A DNA stretch of 64,000 nucleotides from Candidatus Eremiobacteria bacterium (GCA_963737065.1 CAVTRC010000001.1:1600001-1664000), one strand, 5' to 3'; shown: positions 2,390 to 49,619, numbered from the stretch's first letter. The notes: generated by a model from the sequence alone, not told the origin. A program made the numbers and translations.

Positions 2390-2541
2390 TGTACGGACGT
2401 TTTACCCAGGTGCTGTACTTACCTAGCAAATCTTAAGGTTGGCCGACCACTGACCTGAGCACCCGGTTTTCTTACGCCGGCCCTCGTCGCGTTCAAACCC
2501 TTCGTACACGGCGCCGCATCGCGGCTTCCGTACGACCGGGA

Positions 2542-3285
2542 TCACAACATATCGAGGCCGCCGTTGACGTGAAATGCGGCGCCCGTGATGTAGCCGGAAT
2601 CGTCCTCGCACAAGAACTTCACGACGCGCGCGATTTCGTGCGGCTGCCCGAGCCGGCGCGTGGGAACTTTGTTGATCACTTTCTCGAGCACTTCAGGCGG
2701 CATCGCACCGACCATCTCCGTCTCGATGAATCCTGGGGCGACCGCGTTGGCCGTGATCCCTTTATTGGCCGTTTCGAGCGCGAGGCTTTTCGTAAAGCCG
2801 AACAATCCCGCTTTCGATGCGGCGTAATTGGCTTGGCCGATGTTTCCGGTCGAGCCGATGACCGAGCTGATGTTGACGATCCGTCCGCTTCCGCGCCCGA
2901 TCATGTGCTCGAGCACGGCTTTAGTCATATTGAAGGCGCCGGACAAGTTGACGTTGATGACGTTCCACCAATCTTCGGAACTCATCTTGCGTAGCGTTTT
3001 ATCGAGCGTAATGCCGGCGTTGTTGACCAAAAAATCGACGCGCCCGTATTTGTCGAGTACTTCGTTGACGACGCGCTGGCAATCATCGAAGTCGTCCACA
3101 CGTCCCTGATGGACCGAGATGTTGCCGCCGCGTTCGCGAATGCGCGCGGCGCACGATTCGGCGGATTCTTTTCCTTTGTTGTAACCCGCAGCGACGTGCG
3201 CGTTCGCGCGAGCGAGTTCGTCGCTGATTGCGGCCCCAATGCCGCGAGTACCGCCGGTAACAATCGCAACTCGTCCTGTAAACAT
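2542..3285 (-). CDS. phaB: Acetoacetyl-CoA reductase (SDR), second copy
   Basis: TGGTRGIG, NNAGITLD, GQANYAASKAG, C-terminal VNGGLDM. Confidence 0.85.
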   Translation of the reverse strand: MFTGRVAIVTGGTRGIGAAISDELARANAHVAAGYNKGKESAESCAARIRERGGNISVHQGRVDDFDDCQRVVNEVLDKYGRVDFLVNNAGITLDKTLRKMSSEDWWNVINVNLSGAFNMTKAVLEHMIGRGSGRIVNISSVIGSTGNIGQANYAASKAGLFGFTKSLALETANKGITANAVAPGFIETEMVGAMPPEVLEKVINKVPTRRLGQPHEIARVVKFLCEDDSGYITGAAFHVNGGLDML

Positions 3286-16950: not shown

Positions 16951-17820
16951 ATGCATCTCCTTCGACAGGCCCAGGATGACAATGGCCCGGAATCCGACGC
17001 ATGTGTTCAGCCGGCGAAAAAGCTCGGCCGCGCGATCGTGCTGACGTCGGGTAAAGGCGGCGTCGGCAAGACGACGACGACGGCGAATCTCGGCACGGCA
17101 CTCGCGGCGCGCGGTGAGCGCGTCGTGCTCGTCGACGCGGACGTCGGTCTGCGCAATCTCGACATCGTGCTCGGTCTCGAGAGCCGGGTGAAGTATCATG
17201 TGCTCGACGTGCTCGAAGACAAAGTGTCGATCGACGATGCGCTGGTCGGTGACAAGCGCGTTGAGACGCTTTCGCTGCTCGCCGCGGCGCAGACACGCGA
17301 AAAAGATGAAGTCGATACCGAAAAAATGCGCGCGCTCGTTCAGACGCTGCGCGAACGATTCGATTACGTCCTGATCGACTGTCCCGCCGGCATCGAGCAA
17401 GGGTTCCACAACGCCGTCGTCGGTGCCGAAGAAGCGATCGTCGTTTGCACGCCTGAGGTTTCTGCGGTGCGCGACGTCGACCGGGTCGTCGGTTTGCTCG
17501 GCAATCGGTTCAAGCCGCAGTTGATCGTGAACCGCTTGCGTCCGCAATTGGTCAAGAAGGGGAAGATGCTTTCCGTCGACGACGTGAACGGTATTCTGCA
17601 TCTGCCGCTGCTCGGTGTAATCGCGGACGAACCGGAGATCATCGTCACGACGAATAAAGGCGAACCGCTTGCGTTACGCCGCGACGGCGCGACGGCGAGC
17701 GCGTATCACGCAATCGCCGCGCGCGTTGCGGGTGAAGACGTCCCCGCGCCGACGGTTGAAGTGAAAGAGCTGTCGTTTCTCGGCAAACTCGGCGCGCTCT
17801 TCGGAGGACGCAAATCGTGA
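16951..17820 (+). CDS. minD: Second MinD paralog; start uncertain
   Basis: SGKGGVGKTT, DADVGLRNLD, DCPAGIEQG, FLGKLGALFG; N-terminal LLRQAQDD is repeat-derived. Confidence 0.92.
   Translation: MHLLRQAQDDNGPESDACVQPAKKLGRAIVLTSGKGGVGKTTTTANLGTALAARGERVVLVDADVGLRNLDIVLGLESRVKYHVLDVLEDKVSIDDALVGDKRVETLSLLAAAQTREKDEVDTEKMRALVQTLRERFDYVLIDCPAGIEQGFHNAVVGAEEAIVVCTPEVSAVRDVDRVVGLLGNRFKPQLIVNRLRPQLVKKGKMLSVDDVNGILHLPLLGVIADEPEIIVTTNKGEPLALRRDGATASAYHAIAARVAGEDVPAPTVEVKELSFLGKLGALFGGRKS
16958..16981. repeat. Solo copy of the GIY-YIG-associated REP-like repeat
   Basis: TCCTTCGACAGGCCCAGGATGACA, 22/24 identical to 37104-37127. Confidence 0.8.
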
Positions 17821-30387: not shown

Positions 30388-30702
30388 GGCTAACTTTTGC
30401 CTTATCGCGGCGTCAGCGGCCGGATCGTGGCCCCTAGGCCACTTCACCGGGCGGCTTCCTTGCGCTAAGGCAAAATTTAACCGTGAAGCTTTGGGGCCGG
30501 GTCGACGGGTTTTGCGTTGACCCGCACTTCGAAGTGCAGGTGTGGGCTAACGTTTGCCTTATCGCGGCGTCAGCGGCCGGATCGTGGCCCCTAGGCGACT
30601 TCACCGGGCCGCTTCCTTGCGCTAAGGCAAAATTTAACCGTGAAGCTTTGGGGTCGGGTCGACGGGTTTTCCGTTGACGCGCACTTCGAAGTGGAGGTGT
30701 GG
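30388..30702. repeat. 157-bp tandem duplication containing a long imperfect palindrome and the 3' end of the M23 gene
   Basis: Copies at 30388-30545 and 30545-30702 differ at about 7 positions. Confidence 0.92.
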
Positions 30703-35392: not shown

Positions 35393-36541
35393 ATGAATTT
35401 CGATCTGACCGACGAGCAGAAAGCAATCCAAAACCTCGCGCGCGAGTTTGCGCAAAACGAGGTAAAGCCGCGCGCTGAAGAGATGGATCGCGAGGAAGCG
35501 TTCCCATACGACCTCGTGAACAAGATGGCTGAGCTCGGCTTTATGGGTCTGCCGTTTCCAGAAGAATACGGTGGCGCAGGAGCCGACACGGTGAGCTACG
35601 CTCTCGCGGTCATGGAGATCGCACGTGCCGATGCATCGACGGCAATCACAATGGCCGCGCACGTCTCTCTCGGAGCGACGCCTTTCTATTTATTCGGCAC
35701 CGAAGAGCAGAAACAGAAGTATCTCGTGCCGCTCGCGCAAGGCAAGACGTTGTGGGGCTTCGGGCTCACCGAACCCAACGCGGGGAGTGATGCCGGAAAT
35801 ACGACAACCAAGGCCTCGCTTCTAAACGGTCAGTGGGTGATCAACGGAACGAAAGCGTTTATCACCAATTCCGGCACCGAGATCAGCGGCGGAACGACGA
35901 TCACCGCCGTGACCGGCACGCGTCCTGACGGAAAGCTCGAGATTTCCACGCTGATCGTGCCGCAAGAGACGCCGGGCTTCACGCGCAGCAAGAAGTATAA
36001 GAAGATGGGCTGGCGCGCGTCGGACACGCGCGAGCTCAGTTTCAACGATGCAACGGTTCCGCAAGAGAACTTGCTTGGCCCACGAGGCGAGGGCTATCGT
36101 CAATTCCTGACGATTCTGGACGGCGGCCGCATCTCGGTCGCTGCACTTTCGGTCGGCCTCGCGATGGGTGCGTACGACGAAGCGCTTCAGTATTCAAAAG
36201 ATCGCATCGCCTTCGGCAAGCCGATCAGCAAATTTCAGGCGATTCAATTCAAGCTCGTCGACATGCTGTGTGAAATCGAACATGCGAAGCTGATGATTCT
36301 GAAAGCCGCGTGGGAGAAAGATCACGGCCGCGACTACGTGCAAAGCGCATCGCTCGCAAAACTTTACGCCGGCGAGCTTTCACGCCGAGTCGTCAACGAA
36401 GCGGTGCAAATTCACGGCGGCTACGGATTCATGGACGAATATCCCGTCTCGCGCATGTACCGCGATCAAAAAATCAACGAAATCGGCGAAGGCACGAACG
36501 AAGTACAACGTCTCGTGATCGCACGCCTAATGGGGTTGTAG
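35393..36541 (+). CDS. Acyl-CoA dehydrogenase
   Basis: GLTEPNAGSD, NGTKAFITN, QIHGGYG, IGEGTNEVQR. Confidence 0.96.
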   Translation: MNFDLTDEQKAIQNLAREFAQNEVKPRAEEMDREEAFPYDLVNKMAELGFMGLPFPEEYGGAGADTVSYALAVMEIARADASTAITMAAHVSLGATPFYLFGTEEQKQKYLVPLAQGKTLWGFGLTEPNAGSDAGNTTTKASLLNGQWVINGTKAFITNSGTEISGGTTITAVTGTRPDGKLEISTLIVPQETPGFTRSKKYKKMGWRASDTRELSFNDATVPQENLLGPRGEGYRQFLTILDGGRISVAALSVGLAMGAYDEALQYSKDRIAFGKPISKFQAIQFKLVDMLCEIEHAKLMILKAAWEKDHGRDYVQSASLAKLYAGELSRRVVNEAVQIHGGYGFMDEYPVSRMYRDQKINEIGEGTNEVQRLVIARLMGL

Positions 36542-36567
36542 CGACAGAACTCCCAGTGTGAAGTGAG

Positions 36568-36765
36568 CCGAGCCGCGTGTCATCGTGATCCGAGCCGTGT
36601 GTCATCGTGATCCGAGCCGCGTGTCATCGTGATCCGAGCCGCGTGTCATGGTGATCCGAGCCGCGTGTCATGGTGATCCGAGCCGCGTGTCATGGTGATC
36701 CGAGCCGCGTGTCATGGTGATCCGAGCCGTGTGCGATGGTGATCCGAGCCGTGTGTCATGGTGAG
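36568..36765. repeat. Tandem array, 9 x 22 bp (CCGAGCCGYGTGTCATSGTGAT)
   Basis: Exact 22-bp period; no unique spacers. Confidence 0.95.
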
Positions 36766-36770
36766 CGCAG

Positions 36771-37130
36771 CAGTGTCATCCTGAGCTTGTCGAAGGATCG
36801 TCTCGCAGCAGTAGCGCTGGAAATGAAGCGCTACTACGTTTATATGCTGCAATGCGCCGGCGGTTCGTTCTATGTCGGTATTACGAACGACCTTGAACGG
36901 CGCATCGGCGAGCACGACGTTGGCTGGAATCCGGCGTGCTATACGCACGAGCGTCGCCCTGTGCGCCTCGTCTATGTGGAGGATTTCGCGAACGTCGATG
37001 AAGCGATTCGTTGGGAAAAGCAGATCAAAAAATGGAACCGGCTGAAAAAGATTGCACTGGCGAACGGTGACTGGGACGGCGTGCGACTGTTCGGGCACGG
37101 GCGTCCTTCGACAAGCTCAGGATGACACTG
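36771..37130. mobile_element. Candidate GIY-YIG/REP element: nuclease gene between perfect 27-bp inverted repeats
   Basis: CAGTGTCATCCTGAGCTTGTCGAAGGA at 36771-36797 and its exact reverse complement at 37104-37130; mobility is inferred. Confidence 0.65.
36823..37125 (+). CDS. GIY-YIG nuclease family protein (YhbQ/UPF0213-like), 100 aa
   Basis: YYVYML...FYVGITNDLERRIGEH...YT...AIRWEKQIKKWNRLKK. Confidence 0.93.
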   Translation: MKRYYVYMLQCAGGSFYVGITNDLERRIGEHDVGWNPACYTHERRPVRLVYVEDFANVDEAIRWEKQIKKWNRLKKIALANGDWDGVRLFGHGRPSTSSG

Positions 37131-37194
37131 GGGCGCTCAGGAGACACTTGGGGCGCTCAGGATGACACTGGGGCGCTCAGGGTGACACTGGGGG
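37115..37194. repeat. Tandem array, 4 x 20 bp (GCTCAGGATGACACTGGGGC)
   Basis: Units at 37115, 37135, 37155, 37175. Confidence 0.92.
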
Positions 37195-38235
37195 CCATGC
37201 GTTTGCGCCGGGTTGTAACCACTGCGAACCGTCGGCAAATAGGACGCGCCGGACGGAGTAGACGACGGCTCCGGCGCCGTTGAACGGATCGGATGTATCT
37301 GCCAATGCATTTTCGCCGTCGATGACACAGTTGTCGCGCGCGGAATCGACGTCGTGAACGTTTGCCGGGCCGCCGACTTCAACGCCCGGAGCAAACGAAC
37401 CGCGGAGACGAAGCGGTGCAACGCGCCGGATGAACCCCAGCGTATCGAGAATCTCAATGTCGACGTCGACTTCGTTTGCGACCTTTTGTCCGTTGTTCGC
37501 GAACGAAATGCACGCCAAGCCTTCGCTGCCGTCGTTTCGCACGGCAGCAAAACCGCGCGTAACGCGCACTGCGGAACCGCCCGAACCAAGCGTCGAAGCT
37601 GCGAACGTGAGGCCACGCCACGGCTCGGAAGGTGCGGGTTGCGTCGTGTGCGCGGTTGACGCATCGATCAGTGCTCCGACGACCGCCCACGGATTGACCC
37701 CGATGCTCACCGACGAACCGGAGCTTTGTGTCGTCGTGTCCGTCTCCGTTCCGTTCGCGGTGTTTGTGGTCGTTGTTTGCGACGAAGAACTAGACGACGA
37801 CGCGATCGGAATTTGCAATTCGGGGAGTACTGCTCCGAGCACGTTAAACGAATGCCGGCGCGGTGCAGGGGTCGGCGGATTAGTAGGCGCCGGCGCTGCG
37901 GCCGGTTCCGCTAGTGCCTGCACCGTGGCAGGCCACGGTCCGCGAAGGAGATTGTAATCGATCGCGTAGTATGGAACGCCGATTTGCGCGTCGGTTACGC
38001 CGAGCGCGTGCAACGCGCCGCGCCCGTGTGACTCCAGCCAGTACATCATCGCATCGCGTTCGGGAGGCGAGAGCTGCGCAACGCGTGCGGTAACCTGCGC
38101 GAGCGGCGACGTCCGTACGGCGTTCAACGCATCGAGCAACGCGGGTGACGGCGTCGCGTTTTGCGCAAGCGCAGGCGAAACCGAAAATGTCGAAAGGGCA
38201 ACGAGCAGTACCGAAAGCCTATAGAAGAGCGTCAT
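37177..38235 (-). CDS. Secreted hypothetical protein, paralog of 39281-40096
   Basis: GGAGG RBS, signal peptide; shares YWL..GR.AL.A.G.TDAQIG and GFAAVR.DG....C.SF.N with the paralog. Confidence 0.82.
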   Translation of the reverse strand: MTLFYRLSVLLVALSTFSVSPALAQNATPSPALLDALNAVRTSPLAQVTARVAQLSPPERDAMMYWLESHGRGALHALGVTDAQIGVPYYAIDYNLLRGPWPATVQALAEPAAAPAPTNPPTPAPRRHSFNVLGAVLPELQIPIASSSSSSSQTTTTNTANGTETDTTTQSSGSSVSIGVNPWAVVGALIDASTAHTTQPAPSEPWRGLTFAASTLGSGGSAVRVTRGFAAVRNDGSEGLACISFANNGQKVANEVDVDIEILDTLGFIRRVAPLRLRGSFAPGVEVGGPANVHDVDSARDNCVIDGENALADTSDPFNGAGAVVYSVRRVLFADGSQWLQPGANAWPPVSP

Positions 38236-38286
38236 CGTGTGCCTCCGCTGCCGTAGCGCATATGTCCGTACTGAAAATACCACGCA

Positions 38287-40099: not shown

Positions 40100-41323
40100 T
40101 TAGCTGGACAGTTCTTCGTTTTGGAAAAGGTTCGGCGTGGCGGGATCACGCTTCGGTTTCTTCGCCGCTGCGGCATCAAGTGAGGTAATGGGGCGCGGCG
40201 CGATATCGATCACGGTGATGTCCGGCATGTCGTCGCTCGTAAGCGCCGCCTCGTCCTTCAGTTTGCGGCCCTGCGGAAGCAGGCGTGATTCGTATGTTCC
40301 CACGGTTTCGTTGAATGACGAAACCGTCCGTTCGAGGTTTTTGCCGAGGCCGACCAGTTTATCCGCGAAGCGCGCTGCGCGCTCGTAGAGCTCCCGGCCG
40401 AGGAGCGCGATCCGCTTCGCGTTCTCTTCCTGTTTGACGGCTTGCCAGCCCATCGCGAACGAACGCAAGAGGCTGATGAGCGAAAGCGGACCGGCCACGA
40501 GCACGCCTTTGTCGAGCGCGTATTCGATCAACGCGGGGTTCTCGTTGCAGGCGGCGCTCAAAAATGCTTCGCCGGGGACAAACATGATGACGAAGTCCGC
40601 AGACCCTTCGCTGTGATGATAATTCCGCTTCGCCAGCGCATCGACATGGTCGCCGAGAGCCTTCGCATGGCGCCGAACCAGCTCGCGGCGCGTTTCGTCG
40701 TCGGCCGCTTCGAACGCCGCTTGCAGCGAATCGGTCGGAGCTTTTGCGTCCACAAAGATCCGGCGGTTGCCCGGCAGATTGATCGTCATGTCGGGACGTC
40801 CGCGTCCCGAGTCGATTTCGATCGTTTGCTGTTCGTCGAAGTCGCAGTACACGAGCATGCCGGCCTTTTCGACGACGTTGCGCAGCTGAATCTCGCCCCA
40901 CTTGCCACGAGTCGACGGACTCCGCAGCGCCGTAACGAGGCTCGACGTCTGGCTCGAGAGCGACATCGCGGCCGTTTCGATTTTATCCGCGCGCGCAAGC
41001 AGATTCTCGATCTGCGCCTTGAGGCTTCCCGTGTCTTCGTTACGCTTGCTCTCGATGTCACGGACGAGCCGGTCGAACTCACCGAGTTTTTGAGCGATCG
41101 GCGCGATCACCTCACCGACGCGCTCGCTCGTGCGTTGCGTCGTCGATTCACGCAGCTCGTTCTTCGCGCGTTCCAGGAGCGCTTCGACCGCGTGGATGTT
41201 TTGAGCCGACGCGCTCATGCGTTCCTCGAGCCGCGCGATCCGCGTGCGCTGCGCCAGAAATGCGACCAGCGCGCCGACCACGATGCCGATGATGAGGAAG
41301 CTGAGATCGGAGATCGTCGTCAC
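40100..41323 (-). CDS. rmuC: DNA recombination protein RmuC
   Basis: RGKWGEIQL, RPD...LP, VDAKAP, FVIMFVPGE. Confidence 0.95.
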   Translation of the reverse strand: MTTISDLSFLIIGIVVGALVAFLAQRTRIARLEERMSASAQNIHAVEALLERAKNELRESTTQRTSERVGEVIAPIAQKLGEFDRLVRDIESKRNEDTGSLKAQIENLLARADKIETAAMSLSSQTSSLVTALRSPSTRGKWGEIQLRNVVEKAGMLVYCDFDEQQTIEIDSGRGRPDMTINLPGNRRIFVDAKAPTDSLQAAFEAADDETRRELVRRHAKALGDHVDALAKRNYHHSEGSADFVIMFVPGEAFLSAACNENPALIEYALDKGVLVAGPLSLISLLRSFAMGWQAVKQEENAKRIALLGRELYERAARFADKLVGLGKNLERTVSSFNETVGTYESRLLPQGRKLKDEAALTSDDMPDITVIDIAPRPITSLDAAAAKKPKRDPATPNLFQNEELSS

Positions 41324-48542: not shown

Positions 48543-48686
48543 GTGCAGCACACGCGTCGCCGACTGATGTTGTTCATCATATCAGGCGGCGTGATAGCGG
48601 TCATTGCCGAAGTCGCCGCCGTCGTCTGCTTCGTGAATTTGATGATCGGCGCCACCCGAACGCTGCGCGAGGCTCGTGGAAAATAA
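48543..48686 (+). CDS. Putative 47-aa single-TM protein
   Basis: Hand-translated MQHTRRRLMLFIISGGVIAVIAEVAAVVCFVNLMIGATRTLREARGK; fills the sucA-CMD gap. Confidence 0.4.
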   Translation: MQHTRRRLMLFIISGGVIAVIAEVAAVVCFVNLMIGATRTLREARGK

Positions 48687-49065
48687 GGCATCGCGCGGCG
48701 AAGAGCTTATGCGTCTCGTCGACGGCGATAAGGCGACGGAGAATTTGCTCGAAGCCTACGGCGAGATCGCGCCGGACTTTGCGCGCTACCTCATCGATTT
48801 TGCGTTCGGTGAAATTTATGCGCGCGAAGGCGATCTGAAACATCGCGAGATCGTCGCAATCGCATCCCTTACCACCATGGGGGGCTGCGACGCGCAGCTC
48901 GAAACGCACATTCACGGCGCATTCAACGTGGGATTGACGGAACCGGAAGTCGTGGAAACGGTCATGACGTTGATTCCGTACATCGGCTTTCCGAGGGCCC
49001 TGAGCGCGATGGCGATCGTGAAACGCGTCGTAGAAAAGCGGCGCCGTCGCAACCGCTCATCGTGA
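48676..49065 (+). CDS. Carboxymuconolactone decarboxylase family protein
   Basis: FAFGEIYAR, REIVAIASL, HIHGAFNVG, PYIGFPRA. Confidence 0.92.
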   Translation: MENKASRGEELMRLVDGDKATENLLEAYGEIAPDFARYLIDFAFGEIYAREGDLKHREIVAIASLTTMGGCDAQLETHIHGAFNVGLTEPEVVETVMTLIPYIGFPRALSAMAIVKRVVEKRRRRNRSS

Positions 49066-49109
49066 GCTCGCCGCCGAAGGATGCAATCCTTCGACGAGCT
49101 GAGCATGAC
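49057..49109. repeat. Degenerate inverted doublet (REPIN-like) of the GIY-YIG-associated repeat
   Basis: TCATCGTGAGCTCGccgCCGAAGGAT-gca-ATCCTTCGACGAGCTGAGCATGAC between convergent genes. Confidence 0.75.
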
Positions 49110-49115
49110 GCGGTG

Positions 49116-49619
49116 TTACTGCGGTGGACGGCGATCGCGGTCGCGATGGCGATACTGGCCGTTGTACCCGTAGTATCCGCCGTTGCCGTAGCCGCCGTTG
49201 TTATAGCTGCCGTTACTGTAATAGCCGCCGTTGTTGTAGCCACCGTTGTTGTAGCCGCCGTTGTTGTAGCCGCCGTTATACCCGTAGCCGTTCTGACCGT
49301 TGATGTAACACTGCTGGCCGTTGCAGGCGACCTGCTCGCCTTGGTTTCCCGGATACCACGAGTAACCGTTGGGTGCGACGACATGTCCGTCGGCATAGAC
49401 CGTACTTCCGTCCGGCAAGTATCCCGTCACCGTCGTGGCTTCACGATGCTTGTTCGAGACGTTGATCGCGGTGGCGATGCCGGCAATCGCTGCCGCAGCG
49501 CCGATGATCGTGCGCGTTGTAGCTGCGCCGTCGGCGCGTGCAGGCGCGGCGATCGAGGTCATCATGACCCAGGTGAGCGCGAGTCCCGCAACGGCGGAGC
49601 GAATCAGTGAAGTGTTCAT
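49116..49619 (-). CDS. Secreted protein with Gly/Tyr/Asn-rich (YNNGG)n tail
   Basis: Signal peptide APARA; 15-bp coding repeats at about 49177-49280. Confidence 0.8.
   Translation of the reverse strand: MNTSLIRSAVAGLALTWVMMTSIAAPARADGAATTRTIIGAAAAIAGIATAINVSNKHREATTVTGYLPDGSTVYADGHVVAPNGYSWYPGNQGEQVACNGQQCYINGQNGYGYNGGYNNGGYNNGGYNNGGYYSNGSYNNGGYGNGGYYGYNGQYRHRDRDRRPPQ

Follow-up and report, generated by a model that had tools for sequence, protein, structure and literature searches.

A GIY-YIG nuclease gene bracketed by inverted hairpin repeats in Candidatus Eremiobacteria: a probable Ssn-type locus with a different repeat class

The nuclease gene and its flanking repeats

We analysed a 64,000-nucleotide stretch of Candidatus Eremiobacteria DNA (the window), in which a short gene for a GIY-YIG nuclease lies between two inverted repeats. 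The features of the locus are the following.

36563..36764, plus strand: tandem array of 9.2 head-only units of 22 bp (Tandem Repeats Finder, 95% matches)
36771..36801, plus strand: left full repeat, an SRM-like hairpin site (sequence, inverted repeat, covariance model)
36823..37125, plus strand: single-domain GIY-YIG nuclease gene, 100 aa (ORF, Pfam PF01541, conservation, AlphaFold2, Foldseek)
37100..37130, minus strand: right full repeat, inverted (sequence, covariance model)
37115..37193, minus strand: tandem array of four 20-bp units made of repeat heads (Tandem Repeats Finder, repeat search, ORF list)

The start codon at 36823 was set by the homologues, which open with MKRYYVY; a 129-aa version from the ATG at 36736, which starts inside the tandem array, is probably an over-extension. 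The protein matches PF01541 (GIY-YIG) over residues 4-76 (E 1.6e-17). Its other Pfam match, T5orf172, overlaps this one and is sub-threshold (19 bits vs a cut-off of 20), and no NCBIfam family was matched. Across an alignment of 59 homologues E65 never varies, and conservation reaches at least 90% at Y7 and Y17. A protein search returned 60 relatives of 44-80% identity, many with a PSTSSG or PSTGSG ending; the window protein itself ends in GHGRPSTSSG, with the TGA at 37123-37125. The AlphaFold2 model shows one compact domain (pLDDT 82.5), for which the top Foldseek matches were UPF0213 folds, followed by Slx1 GIY-YIG folds. Residues 93-100, which are encoded by the repeat, have pLDDT below 50 in this model, and the tail is predicted to be disordered.

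No sigma-70-like promoter was found for the nuclease gene. At many homologous loci (L001-L078), the space from the left repeat to the start codon contains a CGCAG(A/T)A or GCACAGA motif, ∼10-20 nt before the start, and its version in the window is CGCAGCAGTAG, at 36800-36815; it may be a promoter, leader or site component. A 9-bp hairpin at the start codon (36810-36835) was discarded, being absent as a conserved feature in the homologues.

The sequence CAGTGTCATCCTGAGCTTGTCGAAGGA at 36771-36797 recurs as its exact reverse complement at 37104-37130. The initial annotation had described perfect 27-bp inverted repeats around a 100-aa GIY-YIG gene, the right one encoding PSTSSG and the stop codon, and both statements were confirmed; the right repeat overlaps the last six codons together with the TGA. 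The repeat search extends the inverted pair to 36 nt at 94% (36762-36797 and 37104-37139). The left repeat is laid out as GTC + ATCC-TGAGC-TTG-TCGAA-GGAT + C, with its head facing away from the gene. In covariance-model searches, the left repeat was matched at 36773-36801 with 44.9 bits (E 5.9e-11) and the right one at 37100-37128 on the minus strand with 47.2 bits (E 1.3e-11). Either strand of the repeat has a TGA in one of its frames, and a mis-called ORF (P0041) contains the other reading frames of both repeat arms.

The tandem arrays of head-only units on both outer sides add to what the initial annotation had noticed. Units of the left array open with the GTGTCAT head and have no TCGAAGG half; GTGTCAN recurs at 36577, 36599 and onwards to 36753 with a spacing of 22 nt. 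On the right side, the outermost unit encodes the last residues (PPVSP) and the TGA of the ORF at 37177..38283 on the minus strand. The unit of gene plus repeats takes up all the space that separates an acyl-CoA dehydrogenase gene from a hypothetical gene in convergent orientation. Pfam analysis of the flanking genes shows no transposase domain, in agreement with the initial annotation. A gene of the RmuC family (DNA recombination protein; Pfam E 7.4e-83) is located at 40100-41323 on the minus strand, 3 kb from the nuclease locus, and its proximity is probably coincidental.

Elsewhere in the window the repeat is sparse. The 23-mer core, with up to three mismatches allowed, had 4 matches in the window, whereas 100 shuffles gave 0.00 on average. 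A covariance model made from 120 repeat copies and run on the window with filters off also gave 4 significant copies, the two arms plus 16954-16982 and 49083-49111. Thus only two or three further copies are present in the remaining 63 kb, at two places.

16954..16982, minus strand: solo repeat copy in the narrow space separating two ParA/MinD-type ATPase genes (23-mer with 2 mismatches; 27.6 bits, E 7.9e-6)
49057..49111, both strands: gene-less inverted doublet of a degenerate plus-strand copy, a 3-nt spacer and a minus-strand copy (sequence, covariance model, folding)

Diverged copies had been announced at 16958 and 49057. Copies at both places are real. The position 49057 marks the weaker, left member (49057-49084, E 5.5) of the doublet, the stronger copy of which is at 49083-49111 on the minus strand (E 5.6e-4). 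The doublet sits between convergent genes as a long hairpin, with predicted single-stranded DNA (ssDNA) folding energies of -19.8 and -21.3 kcal/mol (z -3.4 and -3.5), and its left half provides the TGA of the ORF at 48676..49065 (carboxymuconolactone-decarboxylase family).

Beside the doublet, the minus-strand ORF at 49116-49619 has no Pfam match and contains an array with 15/30/48-bp periodicity at 49170-49290 (GTAGCCGCCGTTGTT units), which read by eye on the minus strand gives a Gly/Tyr/Asn-rich low-complexity stretch. Another repeat of the window, at 30388-30702, is a 157-bp unit in two tandem copies of 95% identity that partially overlaps minus-strand ORFs.

Pairing of gene and repeat in homologous loci

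We collected related loci by a search with a 23-sequence alignment, in which 369 stretches were matched and 258 confirmed; the best 80 of the 258 were used for all the locus counts below. The best identity to the window protein among them is 65-67%, and the genome of the window itself is not included. Most of the 80 loci belong to Eremiobacterota/Vulcanimicrobiota, and the remaining ones include Chitinophagaceae and other Bacteroidota, Acidoferrales, Peregrinibacteria, Thiohalospira and Lysobacterales.

We observed the following. A bracketing inverted repeat with a score of at least 16 was found in 61/80 loci, compared to 0/240 control positions in the same loci. A loose form of the motif gave 431 instances in 79/80 loci vs 4 in reversed sequence, and the 329 instances that passed a stem filter are concentrated 37-fold beside the gene (3.22 per kb within 400 bp of it vs 0.087 per kb beyond). 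The copies point inward: upstream of the gene 120 of 133 are on the plus strand (13 on the minus), and downstream 121 of 141 are on the minus strand (20 on the plus). An upstream plus copy together with a downstream minus copy brackets the gene in 51/80 loci, the flank being incomplete in 9/80, and the stop codon of the gene falls within a minus copy in 26/80. Both arms carry the same stem variant in 42 of the 51 bracketed loci (shuffled mean 18.7, maximum 29), and their cores are identical in 13 (shuffled mean 1.6). Gene and repeat belong together, and the pairing is general. The view of the initial annotation that gene and repeat form a pair comparable to RAYT/REP is supported in this respect.

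It had also proposed to test whether the homologues co-vary with their flanking repeats. Repeats of one loop class tend to group on the protein tree (16 changes vs 22.0; 0/200 shuffles). No such grouping is seen for the stem variant, TCC or CCC (15 changes vs 16.9 shuffled, reached in 110/500). With a tree that is poorly resolved (3 of 47 branches starred), these results do not establish co-evolution.

The consensus of 120 distinct short-loop copies is nTGTCAYCCTGAGCYTGTCGAAGGRY, in which the columns of GTCA, TGA and CGAA were fixed by the selecting motif and are uninformative; the class can be summarized as GTCAYCC-TGAGC-loop-TCGAA-GGR. Changes in the stem are compensatory. At the pair 7-25 of these 120 copies we counted C-G 54 times, T-A 42, T-G 12 and G-C 6, with 6 copies unpaired and 48 double changes; the pairs 8-24 and 9-23 have 18 and 8 double changes, respectively. 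The stem covariation score was reached in 0/500 shuffles and every slid register scored lower, and the stem YCC(T)/(A)GGR varies by compensatory change only. Inside it, mismatches are conserved at G11.A21 and A12.G20. Only about one copy in two has the outer GTCA/TGAC pairing. The base after the 3-bp stem is C in 59/120 copies and T in 55/120, the T lengthening the stem, and longer loop inserts are present in some copies at other loci. For the single repeats of the window, which have the short stem, no stable ssDNA fold is predicted (z +0.4 to +1.1); a stable fold is predicted only with the extended GTCAYCC/GGRTGAC stem, as at L016 (-8.1 kcal/mol, z -2.9).

Head-only units are a common part of these loci. 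Within 600 bp of the gene, 161 head-only and 207 full units were counted over the 80 loci, and 49/80 loci have at least one head-only unit; the head-only counts are upper bounds, in which long-loop copies are possibly miscounted. On 41 of the 47 sides where both occur, the innermost full copy is closer to the gene than the head-only units. Adjacent copies are mostly in direct tandem (54 '++' and 50 '--' pairs vs 6 '+-' and 2 '-+'). Downstream of the gene at L064 (5293-6499, Eremiobacterota), ∼10 plus-strand copies with TGC/GCA stems are followed by ∼10 minus-strand copies with CCC/GGG stems, so that two stem variants adjoin with no gene between them.

Relation to Ssn nucleases and to other families

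Chenal et al. (Nat Commun 2025; PMC11893778) described Ssn as single-domain GIY-YIG nucleases located between NTS/SRM hairpin repeats, a clade that is nearly synonymous with cd10448 (GIY-YIG_unchar_3). SsnA of Neisseria meningitidis has 94 aa and one GIY-YIG domain (CDD cd10448). Binding to the NTS hairpin is limited to ssDNA and to one strand, the cut falls just upstream of the hairpin, and the protein does not act on RNA; cutting is abolished by Y6A, Y17A and E64A. Binding depends mainly on the C after the NTS palindrome, and cutting on the three bases in front of it. An SRM is found nearby in 71% of the Ssn homologues and on both sides in 42%, homologues of other species cut their own repeats, and in Neisseria the system reduces transformation by NTS-bearing DNA (PMC11893778). 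The statement of the initial annotation that no characterised mechanism was known is therefore outdated, and its description of the enzyme as a nickase departs from the activity published for relatives, which is cleavage of ssDNA only (PMC11893778). As a whole, that first reading is partly supported here and was largely anticipated by the 2025 paper. A literature search for SsnA-type GIY-YIG proteins and cd10448 returned that paper as the sole relevant one, the other match being an unrelated review.

The window protein shares the main properties of Ssn proteins. It consists of the single domain (∼94-100 aa, no accessory domain), and by position in the GIY and YIG motifs its Y7, Y17 and E65 correspond to Y6, Y17 and E64 of SsnA. 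It is 46% identical (BLASTP E 3e-19) to a homologue of Azospirillum lipoferum 4B, a genome that is among those used to define the SRM (Supplementary Data 5, PMC11893778). The gene of this homologue (L081 1385-1893, plasmid AZO_p3) is flanked by four SRM-pattern copies in two inverted doublets, and the unit is located between sufB and sufC, inside the Fe-S cluster assembly operon.

In a tree of 107 rows rooted on Firmicutes YazA, the window protein falls into a clade of 96 rows (SH-aLRT 98) that contains no UPF0213 protein and excludes the 4 YazA-type rows. The clade comprises the window protein, 53 relatives, 41 canonical-type (Azospirillum-type) proteins and a Sphingomonas homologue, and so groups the window protein with homologues that have canonical SRMs. 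The tree was made by a quick search over 105 columns, the canonical set being every third of the 120 matches listed of 2736 in a search with the Azospirillum homologue; Neisseria is not named among those 120.

The repeats agree with Ssn sites in their frame but not in their sequence. As with NTS, both flanking sites are oriented hairpins with a conserved 5' flank, a palindromic stem and a C after the stem (GTC + ATCC...GGAT + C in the left arm), and as in Ssn genomes further copies are dispersed elsewhere. Unlike the G+C-rich perfect stem of NTS/SRM, the window repeat has an inner part TGAGC-loop-TCGAA with G.A mismatches. Two more differences from Ssn/SRM are the direct tandem arrays with many head-only units and the right repeat that often encodes the protein tail and stop (the 26 of the best 80 loci above). 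The published SRM pattern matches nowhere in the 64-kb window. At none of the 80 loci does it match within 300 bp of the gene, as against 4 matches at L081 as the positive control; across 714 kb it gave 3 matches vs 2 for the reversed control. Because the published pattern finds none, the repeat is not an SRM as defined.

A further difference is the probable host phylum: the 12 files searched, out of the 14 supplementary files of PMC11893778, contain no Eremiobacterota. Supplementary Data 4 of that paper includes genomes with cd10448 homologues in which the SRM is at or below the shuffled expectation (0.84-fold in Terrimonas, 0.26-0.40-fold in Lacibacter). Both these genera also yielded relatives of the window protein (L047 and L074), although their genomes may hold other GIY-YIG genes. 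The low SRM counts fit membership of the family with a different repeat class. We therefore classify the window protein as a putative Ssn-like nuclease that very probably belongs to the family if this is taken broadly, its repeat class not being covered by the definition of the SRM. There is strong reason to expect that the protein recognises its flanking repeat.

We also compared the locus with other GIY-YIG and repeat-associated systems. UPF0213 proteins (Bacillus subtilis YazA; BH0048, PDB 1zg2; EF2693, PDB 1ywl) have the size and fold of the window protein and are its best sequence and fold matches among solved structures; with BH0048 (phmmer E 1e-15) the window protein is about as similar as with the Azospirillum Ssn homologue. 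The genomic setting is different. Unlike the window gene, YazA-type genes belong to a trmNF-yazA-rsmI operon, in which they overlap with the adjacent genes and lack flanking repeats. At four Firmicutes YazA loci, the tRNA1(Val) methyltransferase gene overlaps the GIY-YIG gene and repeats are absent; rsmI overlaps downstream in 3 of the 4, Enterococcus having an opposite-strand hypothetical gene instead. A UPF0213 (YazA/YhbQ type) identity was rejected on the repeat-flanked context and the position outside the YazA clade. GIY-YIG homing endonucleases (I-TevI type) and Slx1 have the GIY-YIG catalytic core in common with the window protein; they have additional domains for DNA binding or for partners, and their substrates are duplex or branched DNA, whereas the window protein is a bare domain.

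RAYT/REP-REPIN systems, which the Discussion of PMC11893778 also takes up, are domesticated IS200/IS605-type HUH transposases with repetitive extragenic palindromes. The window locus resembles them in having a single-copy-like, vertically inherited nuclease gene bracketed by a hairpin repeat, presumably recognised as ssDNA, and in the dispersal of further copies as in REPs. It differs in that the enzyme is a GIY-YIG hydrolase, which forms no covalent DNA intermediate, and not an HUH tyrosine enzyme. An HUH (Y1) RAYT identity was rejected, since the only Pfam match is GIY-YIG and the fold matches GIY-YIG proteins. A REPIN-like doublet organisation was rejected as well, inverted doublets making up 8 of 112 adjacent pairs in the best 80 of 258 loci and the window having one. 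A literature search for GIY-YIG with REPIN returned only unrelated restriction-enzyme papers.

Explanations of the locus and spread of the repeat

The aforementioned data are best explained, in our judgement probably correctly, by a gene for an Ssn-type nuclease (a site-specific ssDNA GIY-YIG endonuclease) that stands together with its own recognition sites. Counted against it are the lack of SRM-pattern matches, the absence of a predicted stable ssDNA fold for the single repeats of the window and the similarity of the protein to UPF0213 BH0048. Each full repeat would be an oriented hairpin site, composed of a 5' head (T)GTCA, the stem, the inner TGAGC-loop-TCGAA and usually a C after the stem. 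By analogy with SsnA, the protein would bind the folded site on ssDNA, for example during replication, repair or DNA uptake, and would cut that strand alone, at a distance of a few bases from the head on its 5' side. The gene lies between inward-pointing sites, with solo copies and doublets at low density elsewhere. The nuclease and its repeats may also have a role in genome dynamics.

A less probable explanation is an active selfish element, in which the nuclease mobilises the gene-plus-repeat unit and/or disperses the repeats in a RAYT-like or IS/MITE-like manner, the doublet at 49057-49111 being a remnant or an unoccupied target; we regard it as unlikely. The Discussion of PMC11893778 raises the same hypothesis and likens NTS-ssnA-NTS to insertion sequences and RAYT/REP. 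The layout is indeed IS-like, and the arms match within a locus, as the identical cores show. The unit fills a whole intergenic gap and provides stop codons for itself and its neighbour, and the Azospirillum unit has entered the suf operon. The pairs L073/L075 (83.8% over 370 bp) and L040/L080 (83% over 422 bp) align in the gene region only, their flanks being unaligned, and the arrangement of the window's flanking genes was found in 0/80 loci (best 80 of 258). These differing contexts, the suf-operon insertion, the gene-only pairs and the stop codons supplied to neighbours speak for mobility in the past.

Recent copies are missing, however. The within-genome paralogues, six pairs from six genomes, are only 49-67% identical, and the closest pairs are syntenic over kilobases (L023/L029, 95% over 5.5 kb; L024/L028, 90.5% over 10.3 kb). 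Direct tandem copies greatly outnumber inverted doublets, and no target-site duplication was identified. The paralogue divergence and the synteny of close relatives argue against an active transposon, and an insertion sequence was rejected on the same two observations. GIY-YIG enzymes hydrolyse DNA without a covalent intermediate, and strand transfer would therefore need host functions. The proposal of the initial annotation that this is a master locus driving the spread of the repeat is not supported by these paralogue identities, by synteny over 5-10 kb, by the two or three further copies in the window or by the direct tandem neighbours. In syntenic orthologues the numbers of array units upstream/downstream differ (4/11 in L023 and 5/8 in L029; 1/2 in L025, 6/3 in L050 and 4/5 in L035), a variation that the selfish element would also account for. 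The gene is inherited vertically over species-level time, and the flanking arrays gain and lose units quickly.

An improbable alternative is that the repeats are a pre-existing host hairpin family, REP-like or terminator-like, beside which the gene lands or is kept by an insertion preference. The doublet, with its strong fold, is at a terminator-like place between convergent genes, plasmid copies are mostly intergenic (see below), and the independence of the stem variant from the protein tree would fit this explanation. It is opposed by the strict orientation rule and the 37-fold enrichment beside the gene, by the stem variant common to both arms of a locus, and by the biochemical recognition of their own flanking repeats by relatives (PMC11893778). 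The unpaired GTCA, TGAGC and TCGAA are moreover kept across phyla, which is unexpected for a plain terminator. That the repeats are an RNA-level regulatory or processing signal in the nuclease mRNA is very improbable: the stem covariation is equally compatible with an RNA hairpin and copies stand in the 5' leader and across the 3' end of the mRNA, but the inverted arms are different RNA sequences on one transcript, solo copies occur far from any such gene, SsnA is inactive on RNA (PMC11893778), and Rfam gave no family at gathering score in the whole window and, at E up to 5 in 36400-37400, sR30 alone (15.9 bits vs a cut-off of 38).

The repeat also occurs away from the gene and in distant phyla. 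The 31-nt left arm has 165 matches in 72 plasmid or chromid records, the carriers including Sphingobium, Sinorhizobium, Hymenobacter, Methylobacterium, Comamonas and Gloeothece. Among the 40 matches listed, 38 are intergenic (34 without an annotated feature beneath, 4 in unannotated records). On a Methylobacterium plasmid, a copy with full identity over 26 nt stands alone, no GIY-YIG gene being located within 1.2 kb of it, and it can likewise be counted in favour of the selfish element. Near-identical repeats are thus present from Eremiobacterota and Bacteroidota to Alphaproteobacteria and Cyanobacteria, and homologues of Sphingomonas and Methylobacterium have related repeat variants with other heads. 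Four 16-mers of the repeat were absent from the text of the literature searched; the figures and glam2 result of PMC11893778 could still show the class.

Returning to the Ssn-type nuclease with its own sites, the observations can be joined into a further, speculative reading that we consider rather doubtful. Ssn nucleases would have a second class of site in the TGAGC/TCGAA hairpin, which spans phyla and is missed by the published pattern; it would possibly be the older class, because the canonical clade nests among its carriers in the tree. The arrangement [head-only]n-site-gene-site-[head-only]n would be a footprint of enzyme activity, in which ssDNA cuts just 5' of the head, made in the course of replication or repair, duplicate the head time and again and occasionally give rise to solo sites and to doublets lacking a gene. 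In this way the nuclease, although no transposase, would generate and maintain the repeat family.

Gene-plus-repeat pairing as a kind has already been published (Ssn, PMC11893778), and the window locus opens no new category. New here are the repeat class and its breadth over phyla, the arrays of head-only units, and the protein tail that the repeat encodes. That paper leaves the role of Ssn outside Neisseria and the cd10448 genomes without SRM enrichment (Terrimonas, Lacibacter) as questions, and the window locus with its 80 relatives (best 80 of 258) suggests that some of these genomes use a different cognate site. The candidate site has conserved unpaired bases and a freely covarying stem. 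Enzyme and site are a candidate pair of new specificity, of use for the ssDNA tools proposed in PMC11893778, and the head-only arrays are a possible readout of activity in vivo.

Additional GIY-YIG matches were seen at two of the homologous loci. At L042 (Thiohalospira), two more weak matches (34.8-36.4% identity, E ∼1e-10 to 1e-9) are located at 2464-3075 on the minus strand, ∼2 kb upstream of the main one and on the opposite strand, and at L073 a second, partial match lies 300 bp downstream.
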